From positions 20,896,001-20,956,000 of the forward strand of contig NC_087251.1 in NCBI RefSeq assembly GCF_037042905.1: DNA of 60,000 bases. The letters run 5' to 3'. Below the pieces are notes generated by a model. That model did not search any database. It was not told the origin of the DNA and was given only the letters and a program-made list of their open reading frames with translations. This DNA is from Lytechinus pictus (lineage: Eukaryota). Positions 1-22,000 of the stretch are shown here, one piece after another (the stretch's first letter is position 1; each line of letters begins with the position of its first letter). Made by a program: the position numbers and the translations under genes.

Positions 1-3000
1 TCCAGATACAAGCTATGATGCAGGGGTGTACAGCTATAACTGTGGTATTGGCTTCGATTCTTTCTCGTGAGTATTCCATCATATCTAATCTATACCAGAC
101 ATCTAAGATGCTAGTACAGAAACTGTTTCCCAAAATTAGTATTTCTGCCAAAAAATTATGCTTTTATGGTTTCTTAATGTAGCGGTACATATTTCATGTA
201 ATTTTCTCTTGTATATCTTGAAAAAGAAGGGAAATATATCCACTGTGAAAAAAAATCCTAAAGATTTGCAGTCTTCTGGTTTTTGTATTACTTTTATGAA
301 TTTTAACATTTTTCAACAATCATTAGTCTTACTCAAGTCATAAACATTTTATAAGTACATCCATACAGCAACCCCTAAAAGAATGCCTATTGATATCAGT
401 GTTTTATCGTAACTGAATCAATGCTTGATTTGACTGCCATTTTCTACTTTATTTTTCTTTTTCCCCCGTCAGATGTTCATTGTTGATGGTGTTTCAGATC
501 GTAACCACAAGCAACTGGCATGAGATTATGAATGCTGTGAGTATAATGAATAAGTATTGATACTGATGACAATAATTCATTTATTTGCACTGAGGAAATG
601 ATCTCCTGATTACTTTATTTTCAGTTGTAAAAATCAGTTCTTCTAATTCCGTCCTGAATTTTTGCATATTTATACTACACTGTATATGTATTGGAGGAAA
701 TGAATGCCCAACATTATACACATAGATATATATATGTAGATATTAAAGAAGTTTCGTTTTCCTGTCCTTGGAGAATAAAGTCTTCATTTTCCTTTACCTA
801 TCTTGATGAAAGGTAATATTCACTCATTTTTAAATAGTTCATACCTTCAGATTAAAAACAAACTGAACTATGAACTTAGAACTTTGAAATGCAGATCCTT
901 TATATGTAATGTTTTAAGATCTAGTTGTTGAATTATTGCAGTTTCACCTTGATTCCTATTTCATTCAGTTGGTAACTGGATTAATGGTTGTCTTCTGATT
1001 ACAGGCAATGGTTGCTACAACACAATGGGCATGTATCTACTTTGTTGGTTGCTTTACAACTATCAATCTGGTTGTCATGAAGTGAGTATTGTGTTCCTTA
1101 ATAAGTTACAAAATTGTTTGAAGAATAAGTGAATATCCATCTAGTCTAATCCAATTTTGTCATTTCATGCATAGGAAAACTTCCATGAAATATATGTAAA
1201 TTGTATATGTAGTTCTCTTTACTCAGTTTGGCCCTGCATTGATTTCAAAGGAAATTATGGTAGTTATTATTATTAATTATTTTGATTTATGAAACTCTTT
1301 TTTGTGTTTGACCATTTGTTTGATTATTTATTCAAGATTCAGTTGTGATTTGGACAGATGGGTAACTTTCCTTTCTATTTCATTTCAGTTTATTTGTTGC
1401 CATTGCTATTGAAGCATTCAATAAGCTTGGTACAGAGAAAGAGACAGAAAAGGAAACAAATCAAGAGAAGACTGACAATCAGGAGGTAGGTTTATATTCA
1501 TGCAATCTACATTTATAGAGATTCAATCATTATACAGTTTATATATATATTTTTATGTCCATTAGATTATGTAAAATATATTGCTCATTTCTAACAAAAA
1601 AATAGGTTAATATGCATCTGTATGTTTATGTATTATGAAATTCATATGATGATCCAATTTGAATTTATTGATAATTCCATGCTTTTTCATGTTTAGTTAA
1701 ATTTTAAAACTCTTGAAAAACATGATAATGTCTCCAAAGATTTAATAGAGTTGATTTGAATTTAAATCTATGTGTACAAGATCATGTTAGGATGTAATTT
1801 TTGTTATAGATATTAGTTTTTTTATTTAATACTATCTTGATTAAGCTACTGGTACCTGATACACATTCAATGATTTATTGCGGTGAAAGTCTACCAAATA
1901 TGCAGACAGCAAAAAAAATATAGAGTTACTATAAATATAGGTTATGGAAATCTTGCCTTTAAATAATTTGACATTATATATTTACTTATTGTCTGTCTTT
2001 TTGTGTGTCTGTCTGTTCATCTCGCCTTTTCTCTCTTTCATCTGCTTATCTATCTCCCTATTTCTGTCTCAACCCTTTATCTTTTCTCTCTCTCTATCTG
2101 TATACCTCTGCAGGAAAGTTTCGCTGGTTCAGCAATGACATTCATCAACAACCTGTTTGAAAGCTCAAGGGTATGTTTGATTTGTTTAAATTTTACTTTA
2201 TTTTGTGATTAATTTTCATTAAAAGCTTCTCACTCTGCCTGTCTACATACTTTTATAGTTAAAGATCAAACAAGAATAATACTTCTGTAGAATGATAGAT
2301 AATTGATTAGATGACTTATTATATAGTCATCAGAATGGTAAGCTGAAAGAAACAGTAACCTCATGCATCGTAGCCCTTGTAATTCAGTTCCATATGATAA
2401 TAATCTTGGTTCTGTGAAATGAATTAATCCCTACTGTAAATATCAATGCAAAACAATGTTATACAACCAAATCAACAATCATGATTAAACTTTGTAATTA
2501 AATTCTATATTTGATTTATATGTAGATTGTGAAACCTACTTTAAAGTGGTGTTATTGTGATTTTAGTAAGATGCATTTTTTTCCTATCTAGACCGAGCAG
2601 GAAAAGGAGAAACTTTCTCAGAGGCCAACAGGCAGTCCAAGAATGAGAAGACCCAGTAGAGTGGTATGTTTTTTCAAAACATGATATTAACAAACTATTC
2701 AACTTCTAAACATGCAATATTATGATGGTTGATGGTTTTCAGCGTTCCTCTCAATCTATACCTGTTTTCTAAGTTTTTATTCTCATATTGATTCTCCAAC
2801 ATTCTCTTTTATGGATCAATCTTAATTTCGTTATCAAATTTAATTTTCTAACTATATTATTGACTAATTGATTAACAGTCTTAATTTTGTCTATCTCTTT
2901 CAACTCTGTTTAAATCTTCCTCTTTTAATACTGTTAAAATCTTCCTCATGTTATGTGTCATTTTACAACATAAACATGTTGAGAAAACATGTAACATGAA

Positions 3001-6000
3001 CACTTTGTATTTTGAACTGATTTTGAAATTATAGTAGTTGATGTGTTTAGAACCTGTATTCAAAATTCATATGATCTGTCTAAATGCCAGGGGATATTAC
3101 ATATTAAAAAAAAAAATCTAATCTCGTGTTGGCTTACTCTTCAGGTTGAGTAGCTAATATTCAACTATGTACTTTCCTGGTTAAATATTTTGCTTGTCAT
3201 GTGTACCATGAATATTGGTGAACTCAATACTATGGGTAAATGTGATTTATTTTTAGCCAACTTCATTTAGTGATGATGCATATTGTATTATTTTGCTCTT
3301 GATCACCATTATAATTTAGTATCTGTGTGTGATCCTCATCACTAAACCTAGTCAGAATGGCAGAGTTCACCAGTAATTACGGTACTTTGAAAACAATAGA
3401 TGTATATGTGACCCTCCACGACAAAACAAGAAATTACACTAAAAATGAGAGAAAGTCAGACAAGTTATATTTAACAAAAATAAGGAGAAAAAATGTTTTT
3501 ATAAAAAGAGTGAGTACCTGCATGGGTTTAATCCTAACTGCATGGGGGGGGGGGGCAAACAACTTTACTTGGCGCAGCACCATCTTTAAACTATTTTCTT
3601 TGAAGCCTTGCGCATATTTTGACACCAAGTTTGTGACCAAAGGTCAACCTGAAAATGATATTTTTTTCCATTTTTGTTTACAAAACCAATAGGAATGTGA
3701 TTTTTTCAATTTTGGCTGTAAATCAGTAACTACTTAATATTTTGGCTTTGTTTTGACATAAAGTTGATCAAACTAAATATTCAAACAAACATGTAAGAAA
3801 AAACAATATAATACAAAAACATTAAAAACAATATGATACATAAGAAATTCAATAAAAATATGAAATACATGAGAATAGATGTTGATTCAGATATTTTTCT
3901 ATGCTCCAATGTTAACAATGCTTCTAGGATACTTTGAAAACCAAAAATAATTTATAAAAATCTTTCTGTATGAAGTTATTTCAGAAAAACATGATCTATG
4001 CATATAAATTTGCACAAATTATCATAACTAATTAAAAAAAACAAATTTTTGTGAATTTTTACCCTGTTTATCTCTGTGCAATTTTTGAGGTTCATGCAAA
4101 TTTTCGCAGTGGTCAGCCTTTTCGGGACCAAGATCTGAAGGAGGGGGGACCTGTATTTTCATGGAGTGAAATAGCCCAGTACAGTATTAAGGGTCATAAT
4201 GTCAAAGTACAAAAGGTTGGAGAAAACGTTGCTATATATATACATGTATTATGGAGGGATTAGTTGATTAAATTGACACTTCACTTAGCCTTTGAATGTA
4301 TTCTCTTTAAGTTTAGAACCCTGATAGGATTTGGCTTTATGGAGTAGGTTTTGTAAAGAGAGCAAGTTCATCATTTTTAAACCTTTGAAATTGTTGTAGT
4401 TGTATTTTTTGGCCGTATCTACTTTTGACTCTTTACGATAACTCTACTGTGATCTATTTGTTTTGTGGTGGAGAGTCACATTTATTCCTTCTGACGAGTT
4501 TTTCTTTACTAATAATATCAATATTGAGGGTTGGTTGAGTGTTACTAATTGTGTATTTGTGCTTATTAATATCAGAGTGTTACTTCTACCTTTGGTGCTT
4601 TCCCTGGTTCTCCTCCTAACCTACTTGATGTGCCTCAGTATCCTAAAATTGTAAGTTTATCTGTATGCTGATATAGTCATTGGATATTTGCCTATTAAGG
4701 GATTGCCACTTGGTCTAATTCTAATATGAATAATTCCATTTGGTCTCTATCCATGTTATCAAACAACTATTTGATCTAATTTTCATTTTTTCATATTTAC
4801 CATTTTTTAATGCTAATGGGGTCATGAAGAGTTGGACTTGGGCTTATCTCACATTTACTGACTCCAATATATCTATAACTATTTTTACCAGACACCATAG
4901 TTGCTCTAATTAACCGCCACTTATACTGTTTAGTGTTTTGTTTAATTTCCTGTAATAGGAAATCTATTTGGTCTAATATCTACCCACTTGTTCTAATATA
5001 TGATAAGACAAACTAATTGAGGAAGTTCTGGATTGGGAACACAATAGACTAAGTGGCATTAAGATTGTTTATCAAACAAAACAACATTTAGACCAAGCAA
5101 GTATAAAACCAAAATGATGAAAGGACCAAATAGCTTCAACAAAATTGATCCATGGTAGAACAAAGTTTTGCAATGTTCTCTGATTTGCAGCTGTTTTTAA
5201 AAAAGATTGTTAACCAGCAATTAAACACAAGTAAGAATGATAACCGAATCCCCAGTTCAGTATGATGCGTTGTGCATTTCACTGCTAGTTTAATTTAGTT
5301 TAGTTTAATTAAGCCAAAGTTTAAACATAGGAATTTCTGGGGATTTTTGAGTGATTAAATTTCTATTATCTCATTAAAGGATTACATCTTAATTTCAGTG
5401 GCCACTGGCACAAGTGTATAAATTAGGATTTTGCAATATTGCACAGCTTGTTTTTTACCAATCTGGGACCCATTGCATAGCCATAAAAAACTCTGGCAAA
5501 TAAACAAAAACTCTGGCAAACAAAATTATGCCATTGAAAATTACACATTACAAAACTCTGACAAAATATTTGCCAGAGATTTTATGGCAACATTTTTATG
5601 CAACAGGTCCCAGAAGTGCTCATTAGTGACTGTCAGATATATTGCAGATGCATGAATAATGCAGTATTATTTGATCAAACAAACTTTGTACCTCTGACAA
5701 ATGTTTAAAAAATGTATTTAAAATCCATGTCTAGCATATTCACGAAGTGCATTTCTTATAAAATGTTTCAATTGTAGCCTGTGATTCAGGAAGAGGAAGA
5801 AGAACAAGAGGAGGATCTCAGTGGATTAAGCAGAGAGGAAAGAAAGAAGAGACAGATGAAGAAAAGAAGAGAGAAAAGAAAGAATAAAGTGAAGACAATG
5901 ATCTTTGTTATGACAGCGTTCAGGGCCACCAAAGATTCTGAGCTGAACCTCAATGTCGGAGAGGAAATAGAAGTTGTTGGCAAGGTAAATTTGGAAAACA

Positions 6001-9000
6001 AAGATCAGTGCTTCAAATGAACAAATTGATAGGTTTGATAGAAATTTATTTAAATTGAGAATATTTTAGAATAGTTTTATGCTGATGGATGTCGACAAAA
6101 AAATTAATGCATAACTGGGTGGTGTTTCATTATGTTGGGAGAGCGTTGTTGGCTCAGTCGGTAACTTGTCTGAATGTCGAACCAAAGATCGTGGGTTCGA
6201 GTCCACCCCGGGCGGATGACTGCATGAAGCCAGTGCATTGTGTGTAAACGTCTCTCCCATGTTTCAAAGATGCTGGCTATGTTCCAATGGAAAACACTCC
6301 GTCCCTCGGATAGGACGTTTAATGGAGGCCCCTTGTAGAGGAGAGTCACCACCTTTGCACGTTAAGAACCCACTGCACTATTCGTATAAGAGTAGGGGGA
6401 AACCCCGGTGTAGTGGTCAACCTGCACTCCCCCAATCAGTTATATCGGGAGGAGAGACCTGCGGGTCATAGTGATTTAGTTCACTTTTGACCTTCCAGGC
6501 ACAGGTGACGCCAAACAAATAATAATGATAATAATAATATTAAATATTGATAATGTTCATAAAGTTAAGCATGACCTTTTACAACTGGAACATGTTCTCT
6601 AGTGCTAAGTCAGCTACATAATGTAATATAATTAAGCACAAGAGAGGGTCCCAAGTCTTCTGTAAGGTCATGCATAACTTACGAACAGCTATTTGAAACA
6701 GCCCCTTGTACTCTTAACCAGTAATATTGCAAGTGCGTATTTGTAAGACTTGGTGAAATGTAAACAATTTTGTTGTAAAAGTTTGTCTGTAGAAATGCCT
6801 GTGCAAGAAAAATTTGTATTTTGAAGAAAAATAGGTGAAACAGATAAATGGACAATTCGTTTATGGTACAGTAGTGCATGTGACTCTTGCCATAAATGTA
6901 TTGGTGATTTCATGAACTTGAAACAAAGGCAGGCTTTAGGTACGGGTGTATAGTTAACCGTTTCTAATCAAGGTGAGACAGTTATTCACAATTCTAGCAA
7001 ACTACCAGAGCTAAACTTTTGCTTTAATGTTGTTTTTTCTTTGATTTGAAAATTTACAGCAAGATGAATGGTGGGAAGGACGCAAGGACAATGAAGAACA
7101 GGGATGGTTTCCTGCATCTCATGTCAAAGAGATATCAAGAAGTCAACCTCCCCCAGTTCCAACTCCTTTTGCACAGCGCCCTCATGTGACCCGTAAGGCA
7201 ACGCAGGAAAGCATCAAGTCTGGTAGCTTTAGTGAAACAGATTTCTTCCCATTGAACACAGCATTGGTAGGCAGTCTCTAATTTTAAGTTTAATTTTTTA
7301 ATTCATAAAACCTACCAGTAATGGTAACTCTACCCATATACACTGGTCACTGTTCCTTATTACCATGGTACCACTGCTCATCAGCCATTCAAAATCAAAT
7401 TCTTTTTTGCTAGTTAATCATTGATGGAAAAATTCTCATTAATGATAAGCTTTAGGGAACGGACATGTGTTGAATTTACTATTTGATTCCATTTAGCACC
7501 AAATTGTACTAACATCGAAAAGGTAATTTCTTGTTTTCTTTACTTCTGGTAAAAGAACAAAATGACTTGATTTAGTATATTTAGACAACCCATTCTAGAT
7601 AACAAATTATATGCGTGCTTTCCATGGTTGAGTTTAAATATTAAACAATATCATTGTTTATAGGAGAAAATGCCATAGTCCACTGTTGTGTAACAGAAAT
7701 GCATTAAGAGTAACCAGTTTAACCCTCTGATGAATTCTTTTTTTTTCTTCAGAATTCTACCCAGGATAGACTGATGTCAACCTCAGGATCTACAAACAGC
7801 CTCGATTCTACAGCAAAGAGACCAAAGCTGAAATTAAAGAACACATCAGGAGGAAACTGGAGGAAAGAAATTCTAGGAGATATCACTGTTATGAACCCGC
7901 AAGAGGTATATATATGGTTTGATATTGTTGTTTTTATTTTATGGTGTTTTTCAATAGCCTTAGATGATTTTATGCCAGGCAATGTTGAGAGATATGTAAA
8001 TTTGAGTGAAATGATTTGATTTCGTCAATTGGCTTTGGAAGAAGATGGCTATAAAGCTGAAGGGAAATTAGAGAAAGAGGAGGAAGAAGATGAAGAGGAA
8101 AAATGAGATTAGGGCAAGGGGAAAAAGAAGGAAGGAGGAGAAGATGGAAATGGAGAAGATGATCCTACCTTTCTAATATTTTCTTCTGTAGACATTACAT
8201 TTTCTGCATTATTACAGAAGATCCAATGTTAGTTGGATGCATAACTTTTCTTCTTTTTGTATTATATAGGAGAAGGACGAGGCATACAGTTATATTAAAT
8301 TATACTTATTTCACAAAGATCATATTTCTGGTATCATTCTTGTTTCACAGCTGAAGGAGTTGAATAAGATCCTGAAATCACAACACACAATGAATGCCAA
8401 GTCACACAGTTTAGGAGGTGTAAGTATTTTTTTTATTTCTTAAAAAAAAAGGAGTGTATACATTCATGATCATTTGGTAATAAAAAAATCAGAATGCCTT
8501 AAGTCATTATTTGGGTTTTGTCATTTTAATGATTGATGACATTTTAGTGAAAAAATGCCAGAAAGCTGAAATGGAAAATATAAAATGATAAAATAATTCA
8601 TGCGATGATGTACGTTTGATCTGTGTTAGTTGGTTATTATTTTCAGAAATTCTTCTATGAACCTATTTTATTTGTTTTCCTCTTTTGACTTGTTGATGTT
8701 AATTAAGTAAATATTGTTGTGATAAAAACATTTAGGATTTTGATCATATAGATTATTTCGAGTTGTCATTATTGTTATACAAAATGAATTCACATAAATA
8801 TATTTCACATTTTGTATTTCATTGCAGAGTTTACGAAGACAAGCTGCCATGTAAGTACTATATACTTGGATTCATTGGGCCAAAATATAAAGAATCAATA
8901 TGTATCTACACTGCTGATTTAATTGTCTTATTTAAAAATAAATGTTCTATATATAAGAATTATTCATCTGGTAGCAGCACATATGTATATTGTGATTACG

Positions 9001-12000
9001 GTGTCACCTGCTTATAATCTATTTCCCTTGAATATTTCTTAAAATTCAGGTTTGGCTCGTTGAAATAAAACAAATATGATGTGGTAATCCATAGACTAAT
9101 AATGCAATGTTTACATGAAGTATCCATAATTGTTCATAAACTACACCATAAAGTCATTTTCCATGTACATTCATTTCTTAGACATGATACAATGTAAAGA
9201 TATATTGATTATGATGGTTCATAGATAAACAACTGCAAATTAAAATGTTGCATTAATTATTGCAAGCAATTATGGTTTTAATAGGAATGAACTTGTATCA
9301 TATTGGATTTGTCAAATGAAATTGACAAATTAATAAAAAAAACATTGAATGAAACCTTTCCATGCAGAATACCTCTGTATACAAACCACCTTCCATGCAC
9401 CCATTCTTGATAAAGCTTTTGCTGTCAACTTTATTTTTTCCTCATGTTAACAGATCAGAGAGCATAGAGGAAGAAAGTGAGCCAGCATCTAATATTCCAC
9501 CTCCTCCTATAGTAAGTGCACAATATATTTGTATCAATTAATTTTTTTCATCCAGTCCATGAATGATCAATGTTATACATCTTTATATTTTCTCTCTTAT
9601 TTTGAAGATTGGACATTGAACAGACTGATAATATTGAAGTAATGTGCTACTGAAACCATTTAACAACAGTATGGGATTGTAATGACAAGAAAGATCAGAT
9701 TACAGATTTGTAATCATATACTCCTTTGACCTTAAACTATGATATTTCAAAATAATTAATGATATGATAACAAACAAACTTGTTGGAAAAGAGAGCAATT
9801 AAATGTCATGCCAAAATGGAATCAAAGCTTTGGCACTTGGGTAAATGCAAATTGCAAGTGTTTTGTAAATAGAATACAAAAAAAAATATATTGTATGATG
9901 CATTCGTATTTTCGGATAATAGAGAGTCATAATTTTGTTTCTAAGAATTGAAGGAAATAAGCTTTCTGTTTCAGTTTCATGGATAATTTTTTATATTTTT
10001 GGTTATTGAAGGAAATGAACTTTGAATTTCAATTTCATATAACGTTAGAATGGAAGGGAATACATTTTCATTTTGTTGTTTTGTTTGATACAGATCAGTG
10101 TCCAGCATGCACCAGCGATTCCTCAGATCATTGAGGAGGAAGAAGAACCAGAAGAACCAGATAAAGGTATAAAACTCATTCCATTGTCTCTTTCAATTGA
10201 TTTCATACCCTATGTTTCTCATTCAACCTCCTCCTTTTCTCTTCTTTCTCTCTCTTTCATTCCTTTTCTTGTCTCTTTCCCCCTCTCTCTACACCTAAAT
10301 TGCACTTTTAACCCCCTTTGTGCCTTCCTCCCTCTCTCTTTCATTCAATTTCTTCATGCTTCTCGATGTATTTTCTATGCTATAAATACTCCACTTTACC
10401 TTTTTCCCACCCTCAGGTTTCCCTCTCTTTCCCATGTTCTATTCTTCTACTGTCATTTTTACCTCATCCCTTTATCTCTCTATTGCTCTTCTCTCTTTGT
10501 TTTCTCATGTACACTAACTGTGTTCTCTTTTCTTCCAGTCTGTATTGTCGTCACTTATTACTATGCTGGTAGAGATAAATGCTCCTTCACCATTGCTTGT
10601 TTGCTTGTTTGCTTCATTTATGGCTATGAAATTATATCTGGGCTCTCGATGCTCATTAAGCTTTTGCATGAATGTTCATTATTTCTAACTATTATAAATA
10701 TGCTGCTTGAAGACATGCCTCATATCATATTTATTCAGGCTTCATGCTTTCCATGATCAAGTATGTGTGGTTTTACAGGGAAGGCTTCATTTTTTAATCC
10801 TACTTTTCGGTGTAGCCCGGAATTTTATTGACATCTGAAGAATATGAATTTGAAAAAAAAAGGAAATTCAATAGTTATCTATTTGGCTCCAAATAATTTA
10901 CTGAACTATAAAGAATCTGCATCTTCACAATTGTTGCAAGAACCTTCACATTCCTTTCAGAAATTGATAAGCAGAGTTAGCAACAATAGGATTACTCTTC
11001 AAATCTCCATACATACTTTGTGAACTTGAAATCCAAATTATTGAACTTGTCATTTGTTGTCATTGGGCGGACGTCTTTACAGAGTGTGATTCCCAGCAGC
11101 CCCACCCCCTTCAATAACAGGATTGGGGCAAAGGGTGATTTACCTCAAAATGTGAACAAATAACACTTGTAAATTGCATAAAATTGTTTTGCATAAAAAC
11201 AGAAATGTAAATGGAGATAATTTACAAACCGAGAGAAAATTAAAAAGAAGGAAAAAATGGGGATATATGTGTGCGGTTTAGGAAGGTAATAAATGCTGAA
11301 ACCTGCAAATGATTTGTGATATTCCACAGTGATTCAATTTCTTTATTAAAAATTGAATGACTTGGCAAGGGGAATTTACGGCCGTTACATGTAGAAAATC
11401 TTCTTAATAAAATAATAAAGTAATATTTGGAATAGGGGTATAAAATTGTATAGTGTATTTTGAGTGGAGTGGATAGTAATGAATTTTTGCATACTTAAAA
11501 GATTCTTGCATACTTATTTTACATCTGTCATCTAGAGTTTGCTGTGATTCATTTTTCATCATCATCTTATATCTTCACAAACACATTTTTATAGGTGATA
11601 GTGGCAATGAAGGCGATACTGAAAGTAAGTAGTTTGTATATATTCTCACTAGCTCATATTCACCCATATTTTACAAAAGTGGTTTTATGTAATTAAGCCA
11701 TGCTTTGAAAATGTGGTTTTACTATGGGTAGCCAAATGTAACAACTATAATCTTTTTGTATCTTGACTAACCATTATGGTGTTATTCTGTTATGGAGAAG
11801 AAAACTATCTTTCTATTAGTCTAGGAGACTTTCTCATATGTCGATGTTTCATGATCTCACTCTTTTCTTTGTGACATTTTCAGTGCATGTGGCCCTTTTC
11901 TTTGAGTTGATCCAATTTTCAGTGCAGTGCTCTATTAAGTTTAATCATGAAAAGTGCATAAAGAAAGGTAAAGCTTGTGTAAATCAAATTAAATCATCAC

Positions 12001-14952
12001 TATAATTGTTATAGGCCATTTCTTATATACAAAAAGGGCAAGTTAGGAAAACATTCAAATTGTTTCAGGACCAAATGAACTGAAATCATTTGGAGACCTC
12101 ACATTTGGCTTTCCATGATTATAGAAATTGCATGAAGAACACATGAAGCTCATGAAAGTAAATGAAATTTTGTCTGTATATCCATAATTGAATATATGAA
12201 CTTTGTGAAGGATTCAATCTGTCGTCGATTTAAAAAGAAATTATCTGTGAGAGTACACACCTTTACAAATAAGCACAATACATTGTTCTACAACAACTCT
12301 GACTCACAACCTTGGTAGAGGATGAATAAATTTTGTATCTGAAAGAATTAACTTTTTCAATAAAAATAAAAAGAGGTGACTGTTGATATTGATACTTGAT
12401 GTGAATTTAGACAAAACTATGAATTGGTCAGACACATCAGCCTCTTGTTAATTGCTTTGGCTTTAATATTCAAAATCCATTTGACACCAAATTTATCTAT
12501 TACCACTGTAATTATATTTAGCCTGATCTAAATTGAATTTGTCTACTGCTGTTTAAAGTAATTTGATCGTACATTGTTTAGCTTAATTGCTTATTGGCGC
12601 AATATTAATTTGGTTCTTTTAAAATTTAAGCTTTTTGTTTCTTCATTTATTCAGTGATCAACGTATATCTTATTAGGATTTCTCCATTTCATGCAATGAT
12701 TAACTAGTCTATTATAATATTAGGTATTTACTCTCATAGACTATGTGGCCATTGGTCATAGCCCAACTGGAAATAATATAAGATGACAAATGATATATGT
12801 GGTAGTGAGACCAAATATTAGTAAAGACAAACTGATTTCAGTATCATTGGTTCAAATCCCACCGCTGCCACCATTAAACCAAGATCAGAGATATGACTTT
12901 GATCACAATCCAGTCTTCTTTGTTTAGCCAAAATTCATATAGCCAGTGAACACCCGACACGAAATTGCGCTGTCGATACTGACAATACCAGTGGTGCAGA
13001 TGGAATGGGATTAAACCATATGGGATGAGACCAAATTTGCATTTTATCATTCTTATCTCCCACTAATGATAATAATTCAGCATCATTTCATGCTTTCAAG
13101 TTATTAGCTGTTTTGTGGGAGCTGGGATGCAATTGCAAACTAACCAGTATGTTTTCAAATTTATTTATACATCTGTGTTCTTCTTAAGTTTATATCGTCA
13201 TCATTATTCTTGTGTGTACTTTAAGACTCATTGCTAATTTTACATTGGTTGATTTGTTACCAGTTTGTCTAAGAATTGTGTAGGACCAAGTGCATCAAGT
13301 GGGAATTTGCTAAGTAATTGAAAATTTAAGTGGTAGAAATTACTTTTAAAAAATGCTCATTATGCAAACTAGTTTAATAGAACTGGACCAGACCACATGT
13401 ATGGGACAAAACCAACTAAGCATTATAAGAAAAAAAATGATATTAGACCAAGTTACAATTTATATTAAAGTAGCTTATGAACCCTATGGTAATTAAGAAT
13501 TTGTCCCTTTGTTAGAAGTGTCTTAATCTGTTCTGCATGATCGATTATTTTATTTGTTCATATGCATTGTTTGGCTTCACGTTTGGTTTCATGTGGGTGT
13601 CATAAAAACAACATTGTTGGTGTGTAGTACATGTAGATAAGATAATCTTCTACTGTTGGATAATTTGTTCTATTTCAATGTGCTTTAAATCTACTTAAGT
13701 ATATTGGACCATTGATGGGTGTTGTTTTGAAGATTTATTGGGTGCATTTTTCATTTGAAACATGTTTTTACTGTCAAAGTCTGTTATTTTTCTAACATCA
13801 TCATTGACATCAGCTTTTAAAAAAGATTGATGCACATGCATAAACAGTTATAAATATGCAAGTAAACTATGCTGTTTGAACAAGATTTTGTTTAAAAGAA
13901 ATATTTGATCTTTTGTGAAGATCTTAAATCAATTATAAAATCTAATAATGGCAATCTGGGGAGTGTATGTTTTGTGATTGAGCGATTAGTCAGTGACTTC
14001 CTTGACAATTGTTGTAAGGTAGTGAAATCTTTGGATCCTATTGGCGGAGGGGAAATTTGTGAATGAAAATCACTAACAAGAATCTCCGCTTGACTGTTTG
14101 AAAAAGGGAGTGTTACATTCATTAAAATGAAGTTCAAAAATTATATTAAGATTGATGAAACATGCTCAGGTTTAGAATCATTGCAGAAAAGAAACTTGAA
14201 ATATATACATTCACTTGCCAGTAAGGACCATTGAGTAATATTACATCCTCTTCAATTTTTGTGTTTCCCTTCAGACACACTGACTGTTGAAAAACCAGAA
14301 CTACCAAAGGAATTGAAGAAGAAAAAAAACAAGGAGCAGACTAAAAATGGAGAGATGCCATCTTGGGCGACAAAGTTTCTCCAATCTAATAACATCAAGG
14401 CATCCGTGGATCTTGGCTCTAATGAGGCTCAGTCTGGGTGAGTTTCTGCACTTTTTATTCTACTGGGGAAAAAATGATGCAATTTCATTATCATTATTAC
14501 AAAAACATGTCCTAAGGGAAACTAGATTTTAGTAACTGGTCACACTTTGGTAACCAAATGTGGTATAAGCACTTTAAACAATGACGTTATACTGGACCAA
14601 TTTCTGTGAGCTTTTATGGTCTCTTTCCTGTATAATAAGTGAAATACCATTTTAAGTCAGGGATTTCGAATTCTGTATTGGAAATAGAAATGACTTTCAA
14701 TTTCAATTAGCACTTCTGGGAAAATATATTGCTAAAATGATAAAATACCATATTTTTCTGTTTCATATATATATATATTTTTTTTTTTTGGGGGGGGGGG
14801 TTATGATAAAATCTCACAATCTCCATGTTTTTAGTCAAGAACAAAGAAATAATGCAGTAGATGTCAGCTAGCATTTCTAACATTTTATTTTTTCCTGATC
14901 TAGATCTTCAGATGAGAAAGAAAAACCTGTCGTTGCAGAAGATCAAGTATAG
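1..14952 (+). CDS. 3' portion of a two-pore-channel-like (voltage-gated cation channel superfamily) gene with C-terminal SH3 domain; 5' end lies outside the window
   Basis: Phase-consistent GT/AG exons: <1-66, 473-536, 1005-1081, 1389-1485, 2114-2170, 2592-2663, 5778-5984, 7060-7266, 7753-7905, 8351-8419, 8828-8850, 9454-9511, 10094-10166, 11595-11624, 14275-14437, 14904-14952 (TAG). Translation gives pore helix and filter GFDSFSCSLLMVFQIVTTSNWHEIMNA, then S6 WACIYFVGCFTTINLVVMNLFVAIAIEAF, then a charged tail containing an SH3 domain and ending SSDEKEKPVVAEDQV*. Confidence 0.85.
473..1485 (+). CDS. Pore-loop/selectivity filter and S6 exons of the channel (473-536, 1005-1081, 1389-1485)
   Basis: FQIVTTSNWHEIM...YFV...MNLFVAIAIEAF matches the pore-S6 pattern of TPC domain II (FELTVVNNW..IM / VAFILEAF) and of Cav/Nav repeats (NLFVA). 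Confidence 0.88.
3528..4195. mobile_element. Degenerate non-autonomous DNA transposon (piggyBac-like ends)
   Basis: TTAA-tcctaactgcatg(G)n at the left end and a loosely complementary cagtattaagggt at the right end, with an AT-rich interior. The TIRs are imperfect. Confidence 0.3.
4700..5135. repeat. Degenerate interspersed repeat with reiterated TTGGTCTA / TAGACCAA motifs
   Basis: Several ttggtcta motifs are followed by several inverse tagac(c/t)aa motifs. Similar motif clusters occur at ~12735-13040 and ~13240-13500. Confidence 0.4.
5466..5610. mobile_element. PIF/Harbinger-like MITE
   Basis: TIRs ggacccattgcata / tatgcaacaggtcc flanked by CTG/CAG, with internal inverted ctctggcaaa / tttgccagag. 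Confidence 0.55.
5778..7266 (+). CDS. SH3-domain exons of the channel tail (5778-5984, 7060-7266)
   Basis: MIFVMTAFRATKDSELNLNVGEEIEVVGK | QDEWWEGRKDNEEQGWFPASHVKEI contains the SH3 hallmarks EL, WW.G and G.FP..(Y/H)V, joined by a phase-0 intron. Confidence 0.9.
6137..6540 (+). mobile_element. tRNA-derived SINE with Deu/Nin-type core (DeuSINE-like)
   Basis: A box tggctcagtcgg and B box ggttcgagtcc. The core ggacgtttaa...gcacgttaagaacccactgcactattcgtataagagtagggg...ccccggtg resembles the Deu domain. It ends in an (AAT)n tail and lies in the intron that splits the SH3 domain. Confidence 0.85.
10200..10520. repeat. Pyrimidine-rich (CT) low-complexity tract
   Basis: Intronic CT-rich run. It accounts for most of the 227-aa ORF 10073..10756 beyond the true exon 10094-10166. 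Confidence 0.7.
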
Positions 14953-17900
14953 CAGACCTTGTCCTAAAGCTAATTAAGGATTCAGATATGTAGATTGCAA
15001 TTAAAGTCACAAATTCTATTATAAAATTACATGTACATGTAAGTGATATGGGGGAGGGGTGATAGGCACAAATTTAATCAGACAAGACTACCGTACACAT
15101 TTATAGGTGCCTTCTTTATTAAAATGTTTTTAGAAAATAGAAATTCAGTTTAAGGAGTAAATTTTTCACCTTTTTATTAATATTTAGAGACTGGAAATGG
15201 CTTTCGGGGACTCTGAATGTCCACTCATATCTGTTAACCTTGGATTATGTCAATTGGCTATAATTTTCATATCTTCTGAAATTTGTGAAACAACTAATTC
15301 AGTATTTTCCATCAATATGGCAAACATCCTTTTAATTGTAAATGCTATCAATCATTATTGATGAACAATGTGGTAATGTGTAAATAGTACAGCTATCCCA
15401 GTGATACATTAATGAATGAAAATTACTGCATGTTGTAAAAGACCTGTGATTATAATGCAATAGTCCCACTTGATTGTTATCTGTTAATATTTTTAGTTCA
15501 TTACTTGTAAATTAATTACAGCTGTTCTTTTATTGGATATATGACATCTTGTTATCTAAATAATAATCTTGAGATTTGATCCAATGATTTTCTAATGTTT
15601 TATATGTTTGGATGTTTTGAAGCAGATATAAATGATGTAGTGATAATATGCAATGATTATGATCCAATGATAGTGTGTGATTTTTTTTAAGGCAATGATG
15701 AAATGATTTTGTAATAATTTAACAAAGTATTCATGTGCTGCATTGCAACCATGTGAATGATATGATGAAAATCTTCCTTTTTATGCAAAGCTAGCATATT
15801 TTTAAGTGATTCAATTGGAGAATACCCTGCAATTTTGGGATTTGAGAACTGCATTGAAATGAAACATGAATTTAAGTGTAACTTGCTTTTTATAGCTTTG
15901 CGATATTACTGTACATTGTATATATGGTTTTGTAAGAATAAATCTCTATTATGCCTTCTTTATTCCATCCAGCACTCCATTCAGAATGTTCAGTCCAGCC
16001 TATATTCACGTGTGCTTCTTTTATTGTAAGATATTGAATTTACTTGGTTATGAACTATGATGTAAACAATATCAAATGCATTCATAAATTTGTAAGATAT
16101 ATGCAAGATGTTTAATATGAATGTGGTTTGTACATTTTGTGTTTTTCTATTATAAATTAATGAATTGAAGATATTGTGATTTGATGACTTTCTAACTTCT
16201 GGTCTTTCAAATGAATTTGTTTTTAGCAGATGAACATTCCCTAGCAGCAATATTCCTATACCTCCTCACATTATAAATACAATGATCATACCTCTTTATG
16301 ATGCTGATGATGACAGTGGTGATGCTTTTTTTTTCTATAATTTCACATCTAGTTAGTCACAAAAATCAGTCATATATGTAAAATGATTGTACAGGTTATG
16401 AGAATATTTATCTTCATGGATTAGGTTGATTCTGGGTTTTAGTGTGGTATGTTCACATGTTTGGTTGAACAGGAGGTATTTTGTTTGTAAGAGTTTGGGC
16501 GCGATCCAATATGATCTGGAGACATGAAGGTTTGTGACTGAAGGGAAGAAAAGATTATCATTAATTGTTCTATGCACAGCTGCATCAGTTAATGTTATTC
16601 TCTTACAAACATCTACTTGTTATGCCATACATTGACATGTAACACATAGAACTTCCTAAATTCAGTCCTGATAAAATGATTTGCAAAATATGTAGTTTCA
16701 TTTCAAACTGAATATTAAGATAAAAGGTAGCTTACTCAAGTTTCCAAGTATTGTTTCAACGTTCTCAGCATACACGTACACATTATTGTTGAATTAGTAT
16801 CTATATGTTTACTATAACAACTGTTCTGTTGACGACTGATTGAGAACTGCTATCTTCACTTAACTGCTAATGTATAGAGAATGAATATTTTGTATACCCA
16901 AATGCTCTGATGCCTCAATTATAATATTAATTTCTTTGAAAAACATATTTCCACCTGAATAACATGGAATTTGTAATTATGATGAATAAAAAACTGGGTC
17001 TATAGTCCAATTCAAACACATTACTTTTTCAAGTTGACATAGCTTTGATATATTTCCAAAAATGAGCCTCAATAGATTATGAATCTATTTTTATACATTG
17101 CCTGTTGCTATGTCTGCTAAACCTTTTTTTATATCTTTCTTATCAGGATTTTAAAAATATCTTTTACTTTATGACCATTATCAGTTCACTGTCAGATTCT
17201 ATTTATGAAATAACCTACCAATTTATCACCAAAAAAACTTTTCTTAATTGAATATTTACAACCTTCCTTTTGATTCAACAGGGACAGCATTGTGTACATT
17301 GCATGTAAATTTTTATTAATTTTTTATTTTGAGATAAAGTATGATGAATGCAGACTTAATGGGTAATTTCCTCTTGCTTCCCCCAATGATCCAAATGTAC
17401 AAGACACAAAATGTAAATATGTAACTGAAGAATAAATCTATCATGTTAATATCAGTAATGGTTGTACTTGTCCATTTGCGTGACACTATAGAGCTTTCAA
17501 CCATATTTATAGTAATTTAATATCTGAGCCTCTGGAGCGACATCAAGAAAATGTATGTAATACGTGTATGTGTGAGGCATGTAAGGTACGGGCCTGCGCT
17601 GTACTAATACATCACAATTAATATAGCCACAATTATTTCAGCAGGTTTACCAATAAATTGAAATCCTAATGACAAACATAAAAAATTGCTCCAATAATAA
17701 TAGATTGAATTAAACATTTTACAGCTGCAGGTATTAATAATATTGATTAGCAATTTTCTGGAAATATCACACACTTCCCCCTCAGTTGACTCTCATTGAC
17801 CTAGTCAAGACTTGTGGCAATATGGAACTACCGGTACTTTGGGAAATATGAGACTTCTTTGGAACTTTATGGTTTCTCCCTCAAAGCCAGTCAATAACGG

Positions 17901-18854
17901 GGCCATCGAGTTTCACCCTCACAAATTTAGAAACAAACATTTTAAGAAGTTTTAAAAAGTGAAAGAGGATAGGAAAGAGAAAATACTTTTTCATTTTTCT
18001 TTTTCTTCCTTCCCTTCTTCCAGTTATTATTGATTTTTTTTCTGTATTTCACAGACAGTCGGTGGCAAATATGTTGACAAAAAATATGCTTCAATTTAAT
18101 TTAGAAAACTTAAGGTTTCATTAAATTCAACCTTGCTCCAAATTATCTTGTTGTCACTATGGTGCACTTATAAGCTTTAATACTCCCAATCTCTCTCCCA
18201 TCATCTCCAATTACATTGTTCTCTTTCAACTCTCACTTCATTCCCCTACAGTACATGTTTGATTCAAGAGTTAAATAATTAAAACATACCGACACGTTTT
18301 CAATGCTTCCAAAGAATTTGTATTTGGTTTCCATTAATACCAACCTTGTATGAACACAATAAGGCAGAGTTGTGAAGTATTAGTACTGCAATCTAAAACT
18401 ACTCACATCTAGAGCTTCAACTAAACCAGGGGCAGTTTCACTAAATTGTCTTCAAGACTTCCCAAGTCATAACATCTTACACAGAAATGTGTTAACATGT
18501 TTCTATGTACACAAACTGACTACGCTTTCAGTAAATGAATGTACACCAATGATTAAACACTTATTCCTACCAATTTGCAAGGTAATGTCAAAAGACTATC
18601 GATTAACAACTATGTAATACATGTAAACTGCTTTGTGCTGATAGTTTTGTTCAATAAATATGAAGAATAAAATTGAAGTACTGGGGCATTTATAAATGCA
18701 GATCGAACAAACCATTATTGAGTTATCACATTTTTTGAAAATAATGAGAAATTATCTACAAAATGGGTTTTAAATCAGCTGTGTCATATTTCAAACTTCT
18801 TAGGTTTGCCTATTCAAGATGTAATATTTCTAATAACACTAGAGATGATAAAAT

Positions 18855-19062
18855 ATGAGGATGGTAAAGGTGGTGGGGGTGGTATATGGTGGTGGTGGTG
18901 GTGATGATGAGGAAGATGGTGGTAATTGTGATGATGGCTGGGTGGTATATGGTGGTGGTGGTGGTGATGATGATGGTGGTGATGATGATGATGGTGGTGA
19001 TGATGATTGATTGATTGATGATGATGATGAGGAAGATGGTGGTAATTGTGATGATGGTGGTC
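18855..19062. repeat. (GAT/GGT)n compound microsatellite
   Basis: Directly visible trinucleotide runs with internal duplicated blocks. Confidence 0.9.
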
Positions 19063-22000
19063 ATTTTAGTCAATCAAGAACTTTGAATGGTAGTGTTACT
19101 TTCAACATCAGGGAGTTCCTTCTTGTTCACTTGATTGTATTGCAAATAACTTAAAAAGCTACAAAACATCTTTGCACAAAGAACATATTTCATTATATAT
19201 GATGACGCAAAAAATAAACAAATATTCCTTCTTTAATACCAATCTAATATTGCAACATTTTGTCTTGATTTTGAAGAATGTCAGGATGACTAAACATGTC
19301 ACAATTGTGATACAAAGTAATGAATCATTGCTTCAATGACACACTAGACTAGTGCTAACAAATCTTCAAACCGGTCATTGAGGCAGCCAATACATGTATG
19401 TGCTACAAACTATTGGTGACTTGACATTAAACTCCTTATTGATACTATTAAATGTTTTGATATAAAGTTATTTTGATATAATCAAGGAGATATCTCCTTC
19501 CATGTACGGGCATGCACAATACTATCAAGTTAATGACCCCTGAAGCCCCGATTGGCAACCCCTACATGTACCTCAAATGGTATGCAGACAGGATGTAATT
19601 GAGCCACATGACCGAGACAGATATCTGATGTGTTAACCACATTCATGAAACAACACATCCCAAGCTACATGTATTTTATGCATTATGTGTTAATAGTCAC
19701 AGTAACAAAAATGGCACTTGCACTTTTCTTGAATAACAGTTTGGGAAAAAATGCCCGTTTGATGGCCAAAACCAAAAACCCAAAAGGCCTTTTGAATATG
19801 TAAGGTGTATTCATCAACACTTAAATGATATCATTTGTATTTTTGCTAATAATTATGTGTAAAGTACAATGTAAACATTAAAATTAATGCTAGGAAGGTA
19901 CTCTTTCTTATTGAGAAAACACAAAATTCCCTTTTTTGTTTCAGGAGATGACTAGACTGAGGGTGGGTGTGAAAGGGGGGGGGGTGAAGGAGGAAGAGGG
20001 CCAGACCATGTAAGTTGGTAATACCACCATTGAGAGGGGAAGAGACTCGGATAGGGAAAAAAGTAAGGCATTTCTTATTGCCTCTAACTTATGGTAAATC
20101 GGTTTGGTGTAACAAAAGAACTCATACACATACATGTAGCCAAGTAACAAATAACTTCAAAATTCACGTAGAAGGGCACATGTCAATTCCACCTTTGTCA
20201 CAGACAAATACTTAAGATAATTTGTTATTCATGAAAATTAATCTTGCCAAATATTCAGGTACCAAGAGATGAAGAGTGTACATGTATGTAAAAATATCTA
20301 ATAGGGTTAATAATAACATAACAAATATGTTTTGCCAAGAGAAAACAGTTTTAAAGTTGAAGATATAATTTTCACTATAATGTTTATCAGTTAACAAAAT
20401 GATGGCAGTATGGTAATTATGCTGCATGTGCTTTCCACTTTATATTTTCAAGTTAGTATTTACAGGAAATTACAGCTTTAAAAGTTCCTTGTACGGAAAT
20501 AACAATGAAAAGTTTTCTTGACCATCAAGGCAAGGACAAGAATTTCACTATGTTCAGAAAAATGCAATTTGTACCAATTTCATGCTACTTGTTAAACCTA
20601 ATTAAAACTATACATACATGTAGTTAAACCAAAATATTTTTTATGAATGGCTGTCATGCATACCATACATGTAGACACAGTTTTGCAGACACGCAACAAA
20701 TGACAAATCTTTTTTTTTTCACCCAGTGAGTCAATACAGCTATTTTTTTGCATACACATTGCTTGCAAAAATCTGTCGAGTCAAAACTCTTTCTGAAAGA
20801 CATTGCAAAATAAATTCAATATTATGCATTCAGGAGATCTGACATCCATTACCAATACATTGGTGGTTTATTTGTCTTTACAAGGCTTATCTTCATTACA
20901 CTGATCATTAAACACAATCAAGAAAACAAATCAAATGTAAAGTAGTAAGATCAACATAGATCTTTGTGTAAAAGGCACCTGGTCACTGTAGATAATACCC
21001 TGTACCGGCATGTTTTTGAGCCAAAATATGAGCGACGTTGCACAATTTACATGACACATTTCCTGTTTTTCTACATATCTCCTTCCTGATGCCAACTTCC
21101 CAATTAATCCTGAAATCAAATTTACTGACCTCACCTATTGCAATCTGCTTGATAATACCACATTACACAATACTTGGCAAGAAGCTTCATCTATTAATGA
21201 GTTGGACAAACAAATGGCATATCTGAACAGTATTTTCATGTTGGCTCATTCCAATAATGTACATATAATTATTTAACAAATGGTTCCACAGTAAGATTGC
21301 TCAAAGAAATGGCATGGCTGATCGATAGAAATCAAATGATACAAAAGATAGCTTTTCAAACTAAAACAATGACCTACACATAGGAAAGTAAACAAACAAT
21401 AAACTTGTTACAAAACAGTGTTACACGTAAACAACACCCCATGGCAAGTGATTATCAAATGTATAATACTGTTGAAGACTTTTGTAAAGTACTTTTTAAA
21501 AAAGATACAGAAAAACAAAAAAAATTGTTGGCCAATAGAATGCACACTTGAATTCCTGAGAATGGATATTCTTGAACTCTTTAATGAGCATTCTATCTTC
21601 TTTTTTTAATTCACATTTTAAATATTTGTGCTTCTGACTGTACACAGATCTTTTCTCTTAATCATATTCCTTATGATTTGCTAAACACTTTGTTTTCACA
21701 AAATACCATCACTTGGCAAGGCACAACAGTTTTGATTTTAAAAGCAAGGTTTACCAATGTTTTTTACATAACAAATCAATGATTATCTTATTTTCTTGCA
21801 CAACCAGATTACATACATGTACAGTAGATACACTGGCAAGAAACGAAAACAGAATATACATATTTACACATCTACAAGAGTAAATTGTCTAGGAGTACAG
21901 TCGATAGCTTTCATCATACTACATGAAAGAAGCTACAAAGTACAATGTACATTCCATATTCACACACTGAGAACAAAAGGTGAGAGAGGGACCATCTATG

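Follow-up and report, generated by a model that had tools for sequence, protein, structure and literature searches.

The first 14,952 nucleotides of the Lytechinus pictus window analysed here (60,000 nucleotides in full) hold, on the plus strand, the 3´ half of a gene of about 33 kb, with the coding start some 17 kb before the window. Its last 16 coding exons fall within positions 1–14952, encode 487 amino acids and end with a TAG stop codon at 14950–14952, matching the end coordinate given in an earlier note on this DNA. The whole protein is ~99% identical to a 1362-residue NCBI model from the same species, “uncharacterized LOC129264776” (P0001). When P0001 was aligned to the genome, 27 of 31 matches were collinear on the plus strand of a single contig (C7) and covered residues 1–1362; the remaining four were weak, SH3-only or pore-only, and located in other places.

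The window opens inside a coding exon whose beginning lies further upstream. The end of this exon, at 1–66, encodes outer pore loop sequence of repeat II (residues 861–882 of P0001, 100% by tblastn) and is joined in RNA to the exon at 473–536 (joint 66>473), which carries the pore helix and selectivity filter of repeat II, with a T-S-N-W motif conserved in the family. S6 of repeat II is divided between 1005–1081, which holds its first part, and 1389–1485, which holds its end and the start of the cytosolic C-terminus (joints 536>1005 and 1081>1389); this helix is nearly invariant in the family, and all three exons are supported by RNA and match P0001. Two short linker exons follow at 2114–2170 (1485>2114) and 2592–2663 (2170>2592), the latter 100% identical to P0001 residues 981–1004. 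An alternative 75-nt cassette exon at 4576–4650, in frame and flanked by AG/GT sites, is included in the NCBI model (100% to P0001 residues 1005–1029) and is almost unused in RNA runs X20 and X21 (depth 0–0.11).

The SH3 domain is split over two exons. The first, at 5778–5984, encodes a linker that is acidic and then basic and, at ~5907–5984, the N-terminal half of the domain (SH3_1 at E=0.016 for this exon alone). Joint 5984>7060 leads to the second, at 7060–7266, which encodes the C-terminal half (~7060–7134; SH3_2 at E=6.1e-6) and then a proline-rich stretch seen only in sea urchins in the family alignment. Joints 7266>7753 and 7905>8351 connect these to the two exons of tail motif 1, which starts at 7753–7905 with a basic stretch followed by D-W-R and T-V-M-N-P and ends at 8351–8419 in a segment that is helical in a model of the amphioxus orthologue. 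A 23-nt micro-exon at 8828–8850 (8419>8828 and 8850>9454, 41–54 reads each) precedes the exons at 9454–9511, with an acidic stretch and a P-x-I-S-V motif, and 10094–10166, again with an acidic stretch (9511>10094, 10166>11595). An alternative 30-nt exon at 11595–11624 is spliced into the RNA, forms a gap against P0001 and is missing from NCBI isoform X2. The conserved motif at the end of the tail (T-L-T-V ... G-E-M-P-x-W-x-x-K-F) is encoded at 14275–14437 (11624>14275) and, like tail motif 1 and the P-x-I-S-V exon, is supported by RNA, P0001 and the family alignment. The last coding exon, 14904–14952 (14437>14904), was delimited by in-silico splicing and is followed by a 3´ UTR to ~16370, covered by a piece of the X1 contig at 14903–16370.

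The pore and the SH3 domain are parts of one expressed, single-copy gene. The joints above are the 14 listed from stranded RNA reads and transcript contigs aligned to the window, all of them GT..AG and on the plus strand, and their coordinates are quoted after the splice-site shifts (“cut +n”) made by the read-alignment tool. All 14 lie within a single X1 contig of 5435 nt (depth 63.3), 12 are also contained in X5 contigs, and each is crossed by 12–54 reads in the raw RNA run X20 and by 21–47 in X21. The first mate is on the minus strand in all read pairs and on the plus strand in none, and RNA depth is alike over all exons. Spliced in silico, the 16 RNA-supported exons give an open frame of 487 aa. 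Three links of the junction chain proposed in the earlier note (1485-2114-2592-5778-7060) are thus seen directly as RNA joints, namely 1485>2114, 2170>2592 and 5984>7060. The fourth, 2663>5778, is absent among the RNA joints listed, and a repeat at 5783–5884 was skipped by the read alignment. Its support is indirect: it has GT..AG splice sites and leaves the reading frame open whether the cassette exon is included or skipped; RNA depth is close to zero over 2669–5336; and both flanking exons are 100% identical to P0001. ARAGORN found no tRNA in the intronic repeat. The exons named in the note are present and in frame, and the alternative it had raised, that pore and SH3 exons belong to separate genes, is contradicted by the same-strand joints, the single X1 contig and the open frame.

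The complete product, of ~1350 aa, consists of a disordered N-terminus (~340 aa), a first 6TM repeat, a linker with an EF-hand-like pair, a second 6TM repeat, a short linker, the SH3 domain and a tail of ~240 aa. With the upstream exons found collinear on the same contig and strand, the question of one, two or four repeats is answered by the two Ion_trans stretches of P0001 (E=4.7e-46). Searches of Pfam with single pore or S6 exons (20–32 aa) returned no family because the pieces are too short. A fragment of a Cav or Nav channel was considered and rejected, since there are only two repeats and the gene is complete, with exons covering residues 1–1362. The SH3 domain that the earlier note had called clear is also clear in the whole protein (Pfam PF00018/PF07653: SH3_1, E=1.4e-10, 41.1 bits, cut-off 22.9; SH3_2, 39.5 bits, cut-off 21.8), and the further ~250 residues noted after it are those of the tail, which has three motifs conserved from sponges to deuterostomes. 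The EF-hand pair is a weak assignment by Pfam, with EF-hand_7 in P0001 below the cut-off (E=0.0036, 18.1 bits, cut-off 30) and a match at E≤0.001 in two of 26 family members. Its loops are partly canonical. Most members have a loop 2 resembling D-x-[DN]-x-D-G; its final residue is E in most of the family and Q in Lytechinus and Strongylocentrotus, and Ca2+ gating may therefore fail in the present species.

The AF2 model of the amphioxus orthologue has a mean pLDDT of 61.4, with 70–94 in the core and the SH3 domain; the latter forms five strands at pLDDT >80. Foldseek searches with this model returned TPC structures at all of ranks 1–15, the best being AtTPC1 (7fhn_A, E=4.7e-16, TM 0.75 on the target). 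Filter I reads T-E-N in each of the 25 rows that cover it, and filter II, T-S-N in the sea-urchin protein, reads S-N-W in 21 of 26 rows, the others being three tunicates with N-D-W and two sponge-type rows with N-N-W. Each of the 26 family rows keeps just one arginine in S4 of repeat II; R-x-x-R repeats are retained in some protist relatives.

The 41 best database matches all reach E≤2.2e-42, and 37 of them carry an SH3 Pfam accession. They span echinoderms, a hemichordate, amphioxus, tunicates, a brachiopod, an annelid, nemerteans, cnidarians and sponges; none of these matches is from vertebrates, arthropods, nematodes or molluscs in this word-indexed search, which can miss relatives. Among the aligned animal members, Ion_trans is found in 26 of 26 and SH3_2 in 24 of 26, and SH3_2 is present in 96% of a 70-member ESM Atlas cluster. 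The combination of Ion_trans with SH3 that the earlier note wished to see searched for is thus a conserved one. The family is ancient and widespread, and not the oddity of one lineage. Annotation currently labels its members “uncharacterized”, “TPCN1”, “sodium channel type 11” or “P/Q-type calcium channel”, all of them uninformative or wrong; “TPCN1” and “two pore calcium channel protein 1-like” are names that NCBI gives to some. The coral Oculina has a family member (P0029) as well as a canonical TPC-like protein (P0284). The next-best relatives among 1.84 billion proteins are from choanoflagellates, and the nearest two-repeat relatives in this group also have T-E-N in filter I. SH3 was detected in four of 22 distant relatives scanned, all four belonging to the choanoflagellate sister group of the animals; because several of the nearest choanoflagellate relatives also carry the domain, the SH3 fusion is older than animals. 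A search with the choanoflagellate alignment, which gave 11 hits and was swamped by candidates, returned no proteins of Salpingoeca rosetta, Monosiga or Capsaspora. Six of the canonical TPC-like animal proteins in the tree came from this search.

In phylogenetic trees, the animal members form a clade with support of 100/100 and join the choanoflagellate group that contains the four SH3 proteins at 93/94. Canonical TPC-like proteins form a clade of their own (100/100, stem 1.6) beyond a 100/99 split, and the topology is unchanged in a 51-row tree, where the separation from that clade has a support of 100. These trees are unrooted, leave out four-repeat channels and include 6–7 canonical TPC-like proteins; TPC2 and TPC3 may be unsampled, because the canonical rows are all named “TPC1-like” by NCBI or are unnamed. 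Pairwise scores to P0001 are 767–787 bits within the family, 242–283 for choanoflagellates, 126 for amphioxus Cav3 and 37–82 for canonical TPC-like proteins. By this measure P0001 is no closer to the latter than to Cav or Nav, and repeat II alone scores 72 bits against repeat II of Cav3, as high as the whole core against canonical TPCs. The trees place the family in a separate, ancient clade with choanoflagellate two-repeat channels as nearest relatives. The earlier note had suspected a non-canonical and probably little-characterised channel family, and both suspicions are borne out: the family falls outside the canonical animal TPC-like clade, and no description of it was found in the literature searched, to which subscription journals were mostly external.

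We consider it probable that the gene encodes a two-pore-type channel with a built-in SH3 domain, belonging to a separate ancient clade, that is permeable to Ca2+, gated from the cytosol and tethered through its SH3 domain and tail. Two chains would assemble into one pseudo-tetrameric pore, the narrow part of which would be lined by the filter-I glutamate and the filter-II serine/asparagine of each chain, in an E/S/E/S ring. Such a ring is predicted to make the channel Ca2+-permeable or weakly Ca2+-preferring, unlike the asparagine filter of mammalian TPCs, which is Na+-selective. With a single arginine in S4 of repeat II, the channel is probably not gated chiefly by voltage. Its more likely triggers act from the cytosol: Ca2+ at the EF-hand-like pair, as with the EF hands of plant TPC1, a lipid, or the two together. 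The SH3 domain and the conserved tail would most likely anchor the channel in trans to a proline-rich partner, be it a scaffold, a trafficking protein or a component of the cytoskeleton, and an SH3 domain inside the pore subunit would supply what Cav channels obtain from their SH3-bearing β subunit. We infer from these features a ligand-gated dimeric channel, Ca2+-permeable and tethered via SH3. As proposed in the earlier note, the domain may couple cation flux to proline-rich partners in trafficking or in the cytoskeleton.

Alternatively, the SH3 domain may act in cis, docking on a segment of the tail or N-terminus of its own chain and so serving for autoinhibition or gating. The best matches of the SH3 region among solved structures are p47phox chains, with alignments that continue past the domain into the next segment (query 1075–1145), and in the family alignment the tail motifs are conserved as strongly as the SH3 domain itself, both of which would suit a partner within the same chain. 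Proline runs directly after the SH3 domain and again in the tail could provide the ligand in sea urchins; however, the proline-rich stretches are restricted to sea-urchin proteins and missing in the other 20-odd members, so that any cis ligand conserved in the family would need to be a motif other than PxxP. We regard action in cis as unlikely. Far less probable is that the protein is a divergent orthologue of canonical TPC1, 2 or 3 that gained SH3 in echinoderms. Some of the NCBI names cited above (“two pore calcium channel protein 1-like”, “TPCN1”) and the TPC structures among the top fold matches point in this direction, but the SH3 form extends from sponges to chordates and into choanoflagellates, the two types of protein coexist in Oculina, the clades are split at 100/99 and differ in their filters, and the scores to canonical TPC-like proteins do not rise above that to amphioxus Cav3. 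Moreover, three TPC isoforms are already known from sea urchins, according to a review (PMC7312350). Most improbable of all is an artefact in which neighbouring channel and SH3 genes were joined by read-through or a gene-model error: such errors are frequent in general and 2663>5778 is not among the listed joints, yet the joints on either side of this gap share one X1 contig at even exon depth, the frame is open across it with either form of the transcript, and the same architecture recurs in 24 of 26 orthologues and in four choanoflagellate transcriptome proteins.

Channels with two repeats are presumed to be intermediate between those with one and the Cav and Nav channels with four, and the published inventory consists of three animal TPCs and a TPCR branch that is Cav-like and confined to protists. 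A fourth, conserved family spread across animals other than vertebrates would revise this inventory. It would also offer a tractable system for the origin of Ca2+ selectivity and for the wiring of pore subunits to scaffolds, in that the gene is present in the lab-workable sea urchin, Nematostella, Ciona and amphioxus. One tentative reading, which we hold to be possible but somewhat doubtful, is that the family is the animal branch of the TPCR lineage: an ancestral Ca2+-permeable, EF-hand-gated channel would have gained SH3 before the split of animals and choanoflagellates, lost the sensor charges of repeat II, been kept from sponges to amphioxus and tunicates, and been lost in vertebrates. If so, most marine animals would have a fourth, functionally distinct two-pore-type channel with an adaptor built into the pore subunit. 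The TPCR (“TPC-related”) clade of unicellular eukaryotes was defined by Rahman et al. (2014, Sci Signal), as described in PMC4278181, PMC12839299, PMC8490419 and PMC6259924. According to these descriptions, TPCRs resemble the family as TPC-type two-repeat channels of choanoflagellates and other protists with an acidic filter residue, called Cav-like; published TPCR sequences are those of Salpingoeca, Monosiga, Capsaspora and Thecamonas. Unlike the SH3 family, which is animal-wide outside vertebrates, TPCR genes “are not found in animals” in the words of a 2026 review (PMC12839299), and SH3 is not mentioned in the descriptions.

Canonical animal TPC1–3 are characterised by an endolysosomal location and by activation through NAADP or PI(3,5)P2. 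Like them, the family has a linker joining two 6TM repeats in each chain, and its predicted fold fits mouse TPC1 and human TPC2 (TM 0.65–0.74 on the target). It differs from the solved TPC structures in sequence (16–19% identity), and from TPC1–3 in its added 340-aa N-terminus, SH3 domain and conserved tail, its separate clade and the single arginine in S4 of repeat II; for the arginines of this segment, PMC6424560 describes a role in the voltage gating of TPCs. The filters also differ, being T-E-N and T-S-N in the SH3 family and T-A-N and V-N-N in eight canonical TPC-type rows (six TPC1-like, two unnamed; filter I of Leptotrombidium is broken by an insertion), in line with T-A(-N) and V-N-N given for human TPC2 (PMC6424560). 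AtTPC1, which is vacuolar and gated by Ca2+ and voltage, is the best match by structure and, among TPC structures, also by single-stretch sequence alignment. Its inter-repeat linker carries the EF-hand pair through which Ca2+ activates plant TPC1 (PMC12839299), where the SH3 family has a weakly assigned, partly canonical EF-hand-like pair. It differs in lacking SH3 and the long tail and in sequence (18–19% identity). Cav channels, especially T-type Cav3, have in common with the family a glutamate at the filter position. As the earlier note had held for other channel families, no SH3 Pfam accession occurs among the listed four-repeat matches (P0043–P0121) or the listed TPC-like matches, and Cav channels receive an SH3-GK module in trans from Cav-β (PMC6259924). 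The sea-urchin protein, by contrast, has two repeats in place of four and contains its SH3 domain, free of a GK domain, inside the pore subunit.

The gene on the plus strand of window 1-14952 is expressed and belongs to an ancient, uncharacterised clade whose two-repeat channels carry an SH3 domain of their own. The window is AT-rich animal DNA (G+C 29-39%), and sequence reading of 1-14952 gives short exons with GT..AG borders that encode, in order, a pore loop, the S6 helix, three short linker exons, an SH3 domain split across two exons, and a long tail. The earlier note had proposed that the pore/S6 exons are spliced in frame through the three short exons into the SH3 domain, followed by about 250 aa. 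RNA mapping over window 1-20000, which drew on transcript contigs from sets X1 and X5 and on stranded raw reads from RNA-seq runs X20 and X21, bears this out: 14 GT..AG joints link pore, S6, linker, SH3 and tail exons, all within a single X1 contig (depth 63.3), 12 of them also in X5 contigs, and each supported by 12-54 reads in X20 and 21-47 in X21, and in every read pair mate 1 maps to the minus strand. The proposed junction chain was recovered in RNA except for 2663>5778 (exon end > next exon start), which is not among the RNA joints listed; low-complexity sequence at 5783-5884 was skipped in mapping, and the joint is indicated indirectly, by GT..AG borders, a kept frame and no RNA depth across the region spanned. 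In-silico splicing of the 16 RNA-supported exons yields an open frame of 487 aa, and its TAG stop at 14950-14952 coincides with the end predicted from sequence. RNA joints also define a 23-nt micro-exon (8828-8850, plus strand). The cytosolic tail is alternatively spliced on the same strand, through a 75-nt cassette exon (4576-4650) that is in the NCBI model and almost unused in X20/X21, and a 30-nt exon (11595-11624) present in RNA and missing from NCBI isoform X2.

Searched as a query, exon 7060-7266 matches P0001 (nr; 'uncharacterized' LOC129264776 isoform X2 of Lytechinus pictus, 1362 aa) at 99% identity and the Strongylocentrotus purpuratus orthologue at 81%. The window encodes P0001 residues 861-1362, with five mismatches and two length differences (the 75-nt and 30-nt exons). 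Of the 31 P0001 matches in the assembly that contains the window, 27 run collinearly along the window's contig on the same strand, cover residues 1-1362 and begin some 17 kb upstream of the window. The channel gene is single-copy, because the remaining four matches, elsewhere in the assembly, are weak and SH3-only or pore-only. Pore, SH3 and tail belong to one transcript and one protein, and the gene is expressed.

Several features of the surrounding DNA were also observed. The intron between the two SH3 exons contains, at 6100-6500, a repeat with a tRNA-like T-arm box (G-G-T-T-C-G-A-G-T-C-C), in which ARAGORN called no tRNA; its RNA depth is about 1200-1300x in X20/X21, against 5-20x on the gene's exons, and loose read ends are abundant, which fits a dispersed, transcribed SINE-like element. 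At 16341-20000, X1 contigs lie on both strands at depth 35-100, and X20/X21 show near nothing past about 17300; this X1 coverage could represent genomic DNA in the X1 run or a sample-specific transcript. Downstream of the channel gene, on the minus strand at 34871-38098, two open frames match Pfam Sec1 (E=5.4e-7 and 1.3e-15) and are exons of a Sec1/Munc18-type gene.

The protein has two 6TM repeats: Pfam finds two Ion_trans stretches in P0001 (E=4.7e-46), together with SH3_1 (1.4e-10), SH3_2 (4.6e-10) and, in the linker between the repeats, a weak EF-hand pair (E=0.0036). The last position of EF loop 2 (P0001 residues about 655-666) is Q in Lytechinus and Strongylocentrotus (P0001, P0002) and E in Diadema and most other members, and the loop may have weakened in the Lytechinus/Strongylocentrotus lineage. 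An AlphaFold2 model of the amphioxus orthologue (1184 aa), with the family alignment as input, has a mean pLDDT of 61.4; confidence is good for the membrane core and SH3 (70-94) and low for the N-terminus, the S6-to-SH3 segment and the greater part of the tail. Foldseek against the PDB gives this model two-pore channels (TPCs) for all 15 of its best matches, headed by AtTPC1 (7fhn_A; E=4.7e-16, TM 0.75 on target, 19% identity), and the modelled fold is shown to be TPC-like. Three tail motifs are kept from sponges to deuterostomes: a basic stretch followed by D-W-R ... T-V-M-N-P-E-E ... L-N-K; P-x-I-S-V; and T-L-T-V ... G-E-M-P-x-W-x-x-K-F. Proline runs flanking the SH3 occur in sea urchins only (family alignment).

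A search with the channel core returned 41 proteins at E<=2.2e-42 before a drop to four-repeat Cav/Nav channels at E>=9.9e-23. Named family matches come from echinoderms (all five classes), a hemichordate, amphioxus, three tunicates, a brachiopod, an annelid, two nemerteans, cnidarians and homoscleromorph sponges; vertebrates, arthropods, nematodes and molluscs are missing from these named matches, which in a word-indexed search is weak evidence of absence. The combined Ion_trans and SH3 architecture recurs across the family: an SH3 Pfam accession is present in 37 of the 41 best channel-core matches, the aligned members carry Ion_trans (26/26) and SH3_2 (24/26), and the ESM Atlas cluster containing P0001 has SH3_2 in 96% of its 70 members.

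In pairwise comparison P0001 scores 767-787 bits with family members, 242-283 with choanoflagellate proteins, 126 with amphioxus Cav3 (72 for repeat II alone) and 37-82 with canonical TPC-like proteins. Against the PDB, the family profile scores 249 bits with T-type Cav3.1, summed over three stretches, 139-144 with AtTPC1 and 130 with zebrafish TPC3. A full HMMER scan of 1.84 billion representatives ranks two-repeat proteins directly after the family; the 20 looked up comprise 10 from choanoflagellate transcriptomes, one each from the calcareous sponge Sycon and the annelid Owenia, one that clusters with a Prymnesium protein, one with just a generic JGI label, and six unnamed. Pfam finds SH3 in four of 22 distant relatives scanned (Codosiga, Mylnosiga, Hartaetosiga and one of two Salpingoeca infusionum paralogues).

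The same picture emerged from two trees, one of 51 rows and 786 columns (IQ-TREE PMSF, quick search) and one of 33 rows and 774 columns (LG+G4, careful search; 18 long-branched or redundant rows dropped), both unrooted, without four-repeat channels and possibly without TPC2 and TPC3. The SH3 proteins of animals group together in a single clade (100/100, UFBoot/SH-aLRT here and below, 33-row tree), whose sister (93/94) is a choanoflagellate group to which the four SH3 bearers all belong. Beyond a split supported at 100/99 lie the canonical TPC-like proteins, themselves a clade (100/100) on a long stem. The channel-SH3 fusion predates animals. A second, SH3-less choanoflagellate group, joined in the 51-row tree by the Sycon protein, falls outside this grouping; since that lineage occurs in choanoflagellates and one calcareous sponge, some animals, at least, keep both. 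Its members (P0138 from Sycon ciliatum; P0128, P0130, P0133, P0134 and P0137 from choanoflagellates) also have T-E-N at filter I. Architecture, family and trees together support the overall interpretation of the earlier note, a non-canonical, probably little-characterised channel family with its own SH3, and the phylogeny sets it apart from canonical TPC-like proteins.

Each of the 25 rows that span filter I has T-E-N there, and 21 of 26 have S-N-W at filter II, the exceptions being N-D-W in three tunicates and N-N-W in two sponge-type rows. Canonical TPCs differ: T-A-N and V-N-N are the filters of human TPC2 (PMC6424560), and of six NCBI 'TPC1-like' animal proteins and two unnamed relatives, with filter I of the Leptotrombidium row in this set broken by an insertion. 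Every family row has a single arginine in repeat-II S4, as do all choanoflagellate and animal members of alignment A3; the unnamed protist relatives P0141, P0161 and P0233 keep a regular R-x-x-R series. This distribution suggests that the voltage sensor had lost its charges by the time the SH3 family appeared. The filter-I glutamate, SH3 and tail motifs are conserved, and repeat-II S4 is degenerate.

A 2026 review (PMC12839299) describes three TPC paralogues in animals and an additional protist 'TPC-related' (TPCR) branch, 'not found in animals', with filters closer to Cav; a commentary (PMC4278181) and PMC6259924 give the same account of TPCR, after the Rahman et al. 2014 analysis, and three TPC isoforms are reported from sea urchin (PMC7312350). 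The TPC/TPCR accounts in these four sources do not mention SH3, and the literature searched yielded no description of an SH3-bearing two-repeat family. The SH3 family may itself be TPCR's animal branch. Two chains of such a channel would pair to make one pore, its filter carrying an E/S/E/S ring, and might therefore permeate Ca2+. Gating would act from the cytosol and not through voltage; the repeat-II S4 arginines decide voltage dependence in TPCs (PMC6424560), and in plant TPC1, Ca2+ acts as a co-activator at the EF hands of the linker (PMC12839299). The weakest part of this scheme is a putative role for the EF hands: Pfam gives them marginal support, and in Lytechinus and Strongylocentrotus loop 2 has Q at its last position in place of E. 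Through its SH3 and tail, the channel may carry its own tether for a partner. This would parallel Cav channels, which use an SH3-bearing Cav-beta subunit in trans (PMC6259924); here the SH3 lies within the pore subunit.
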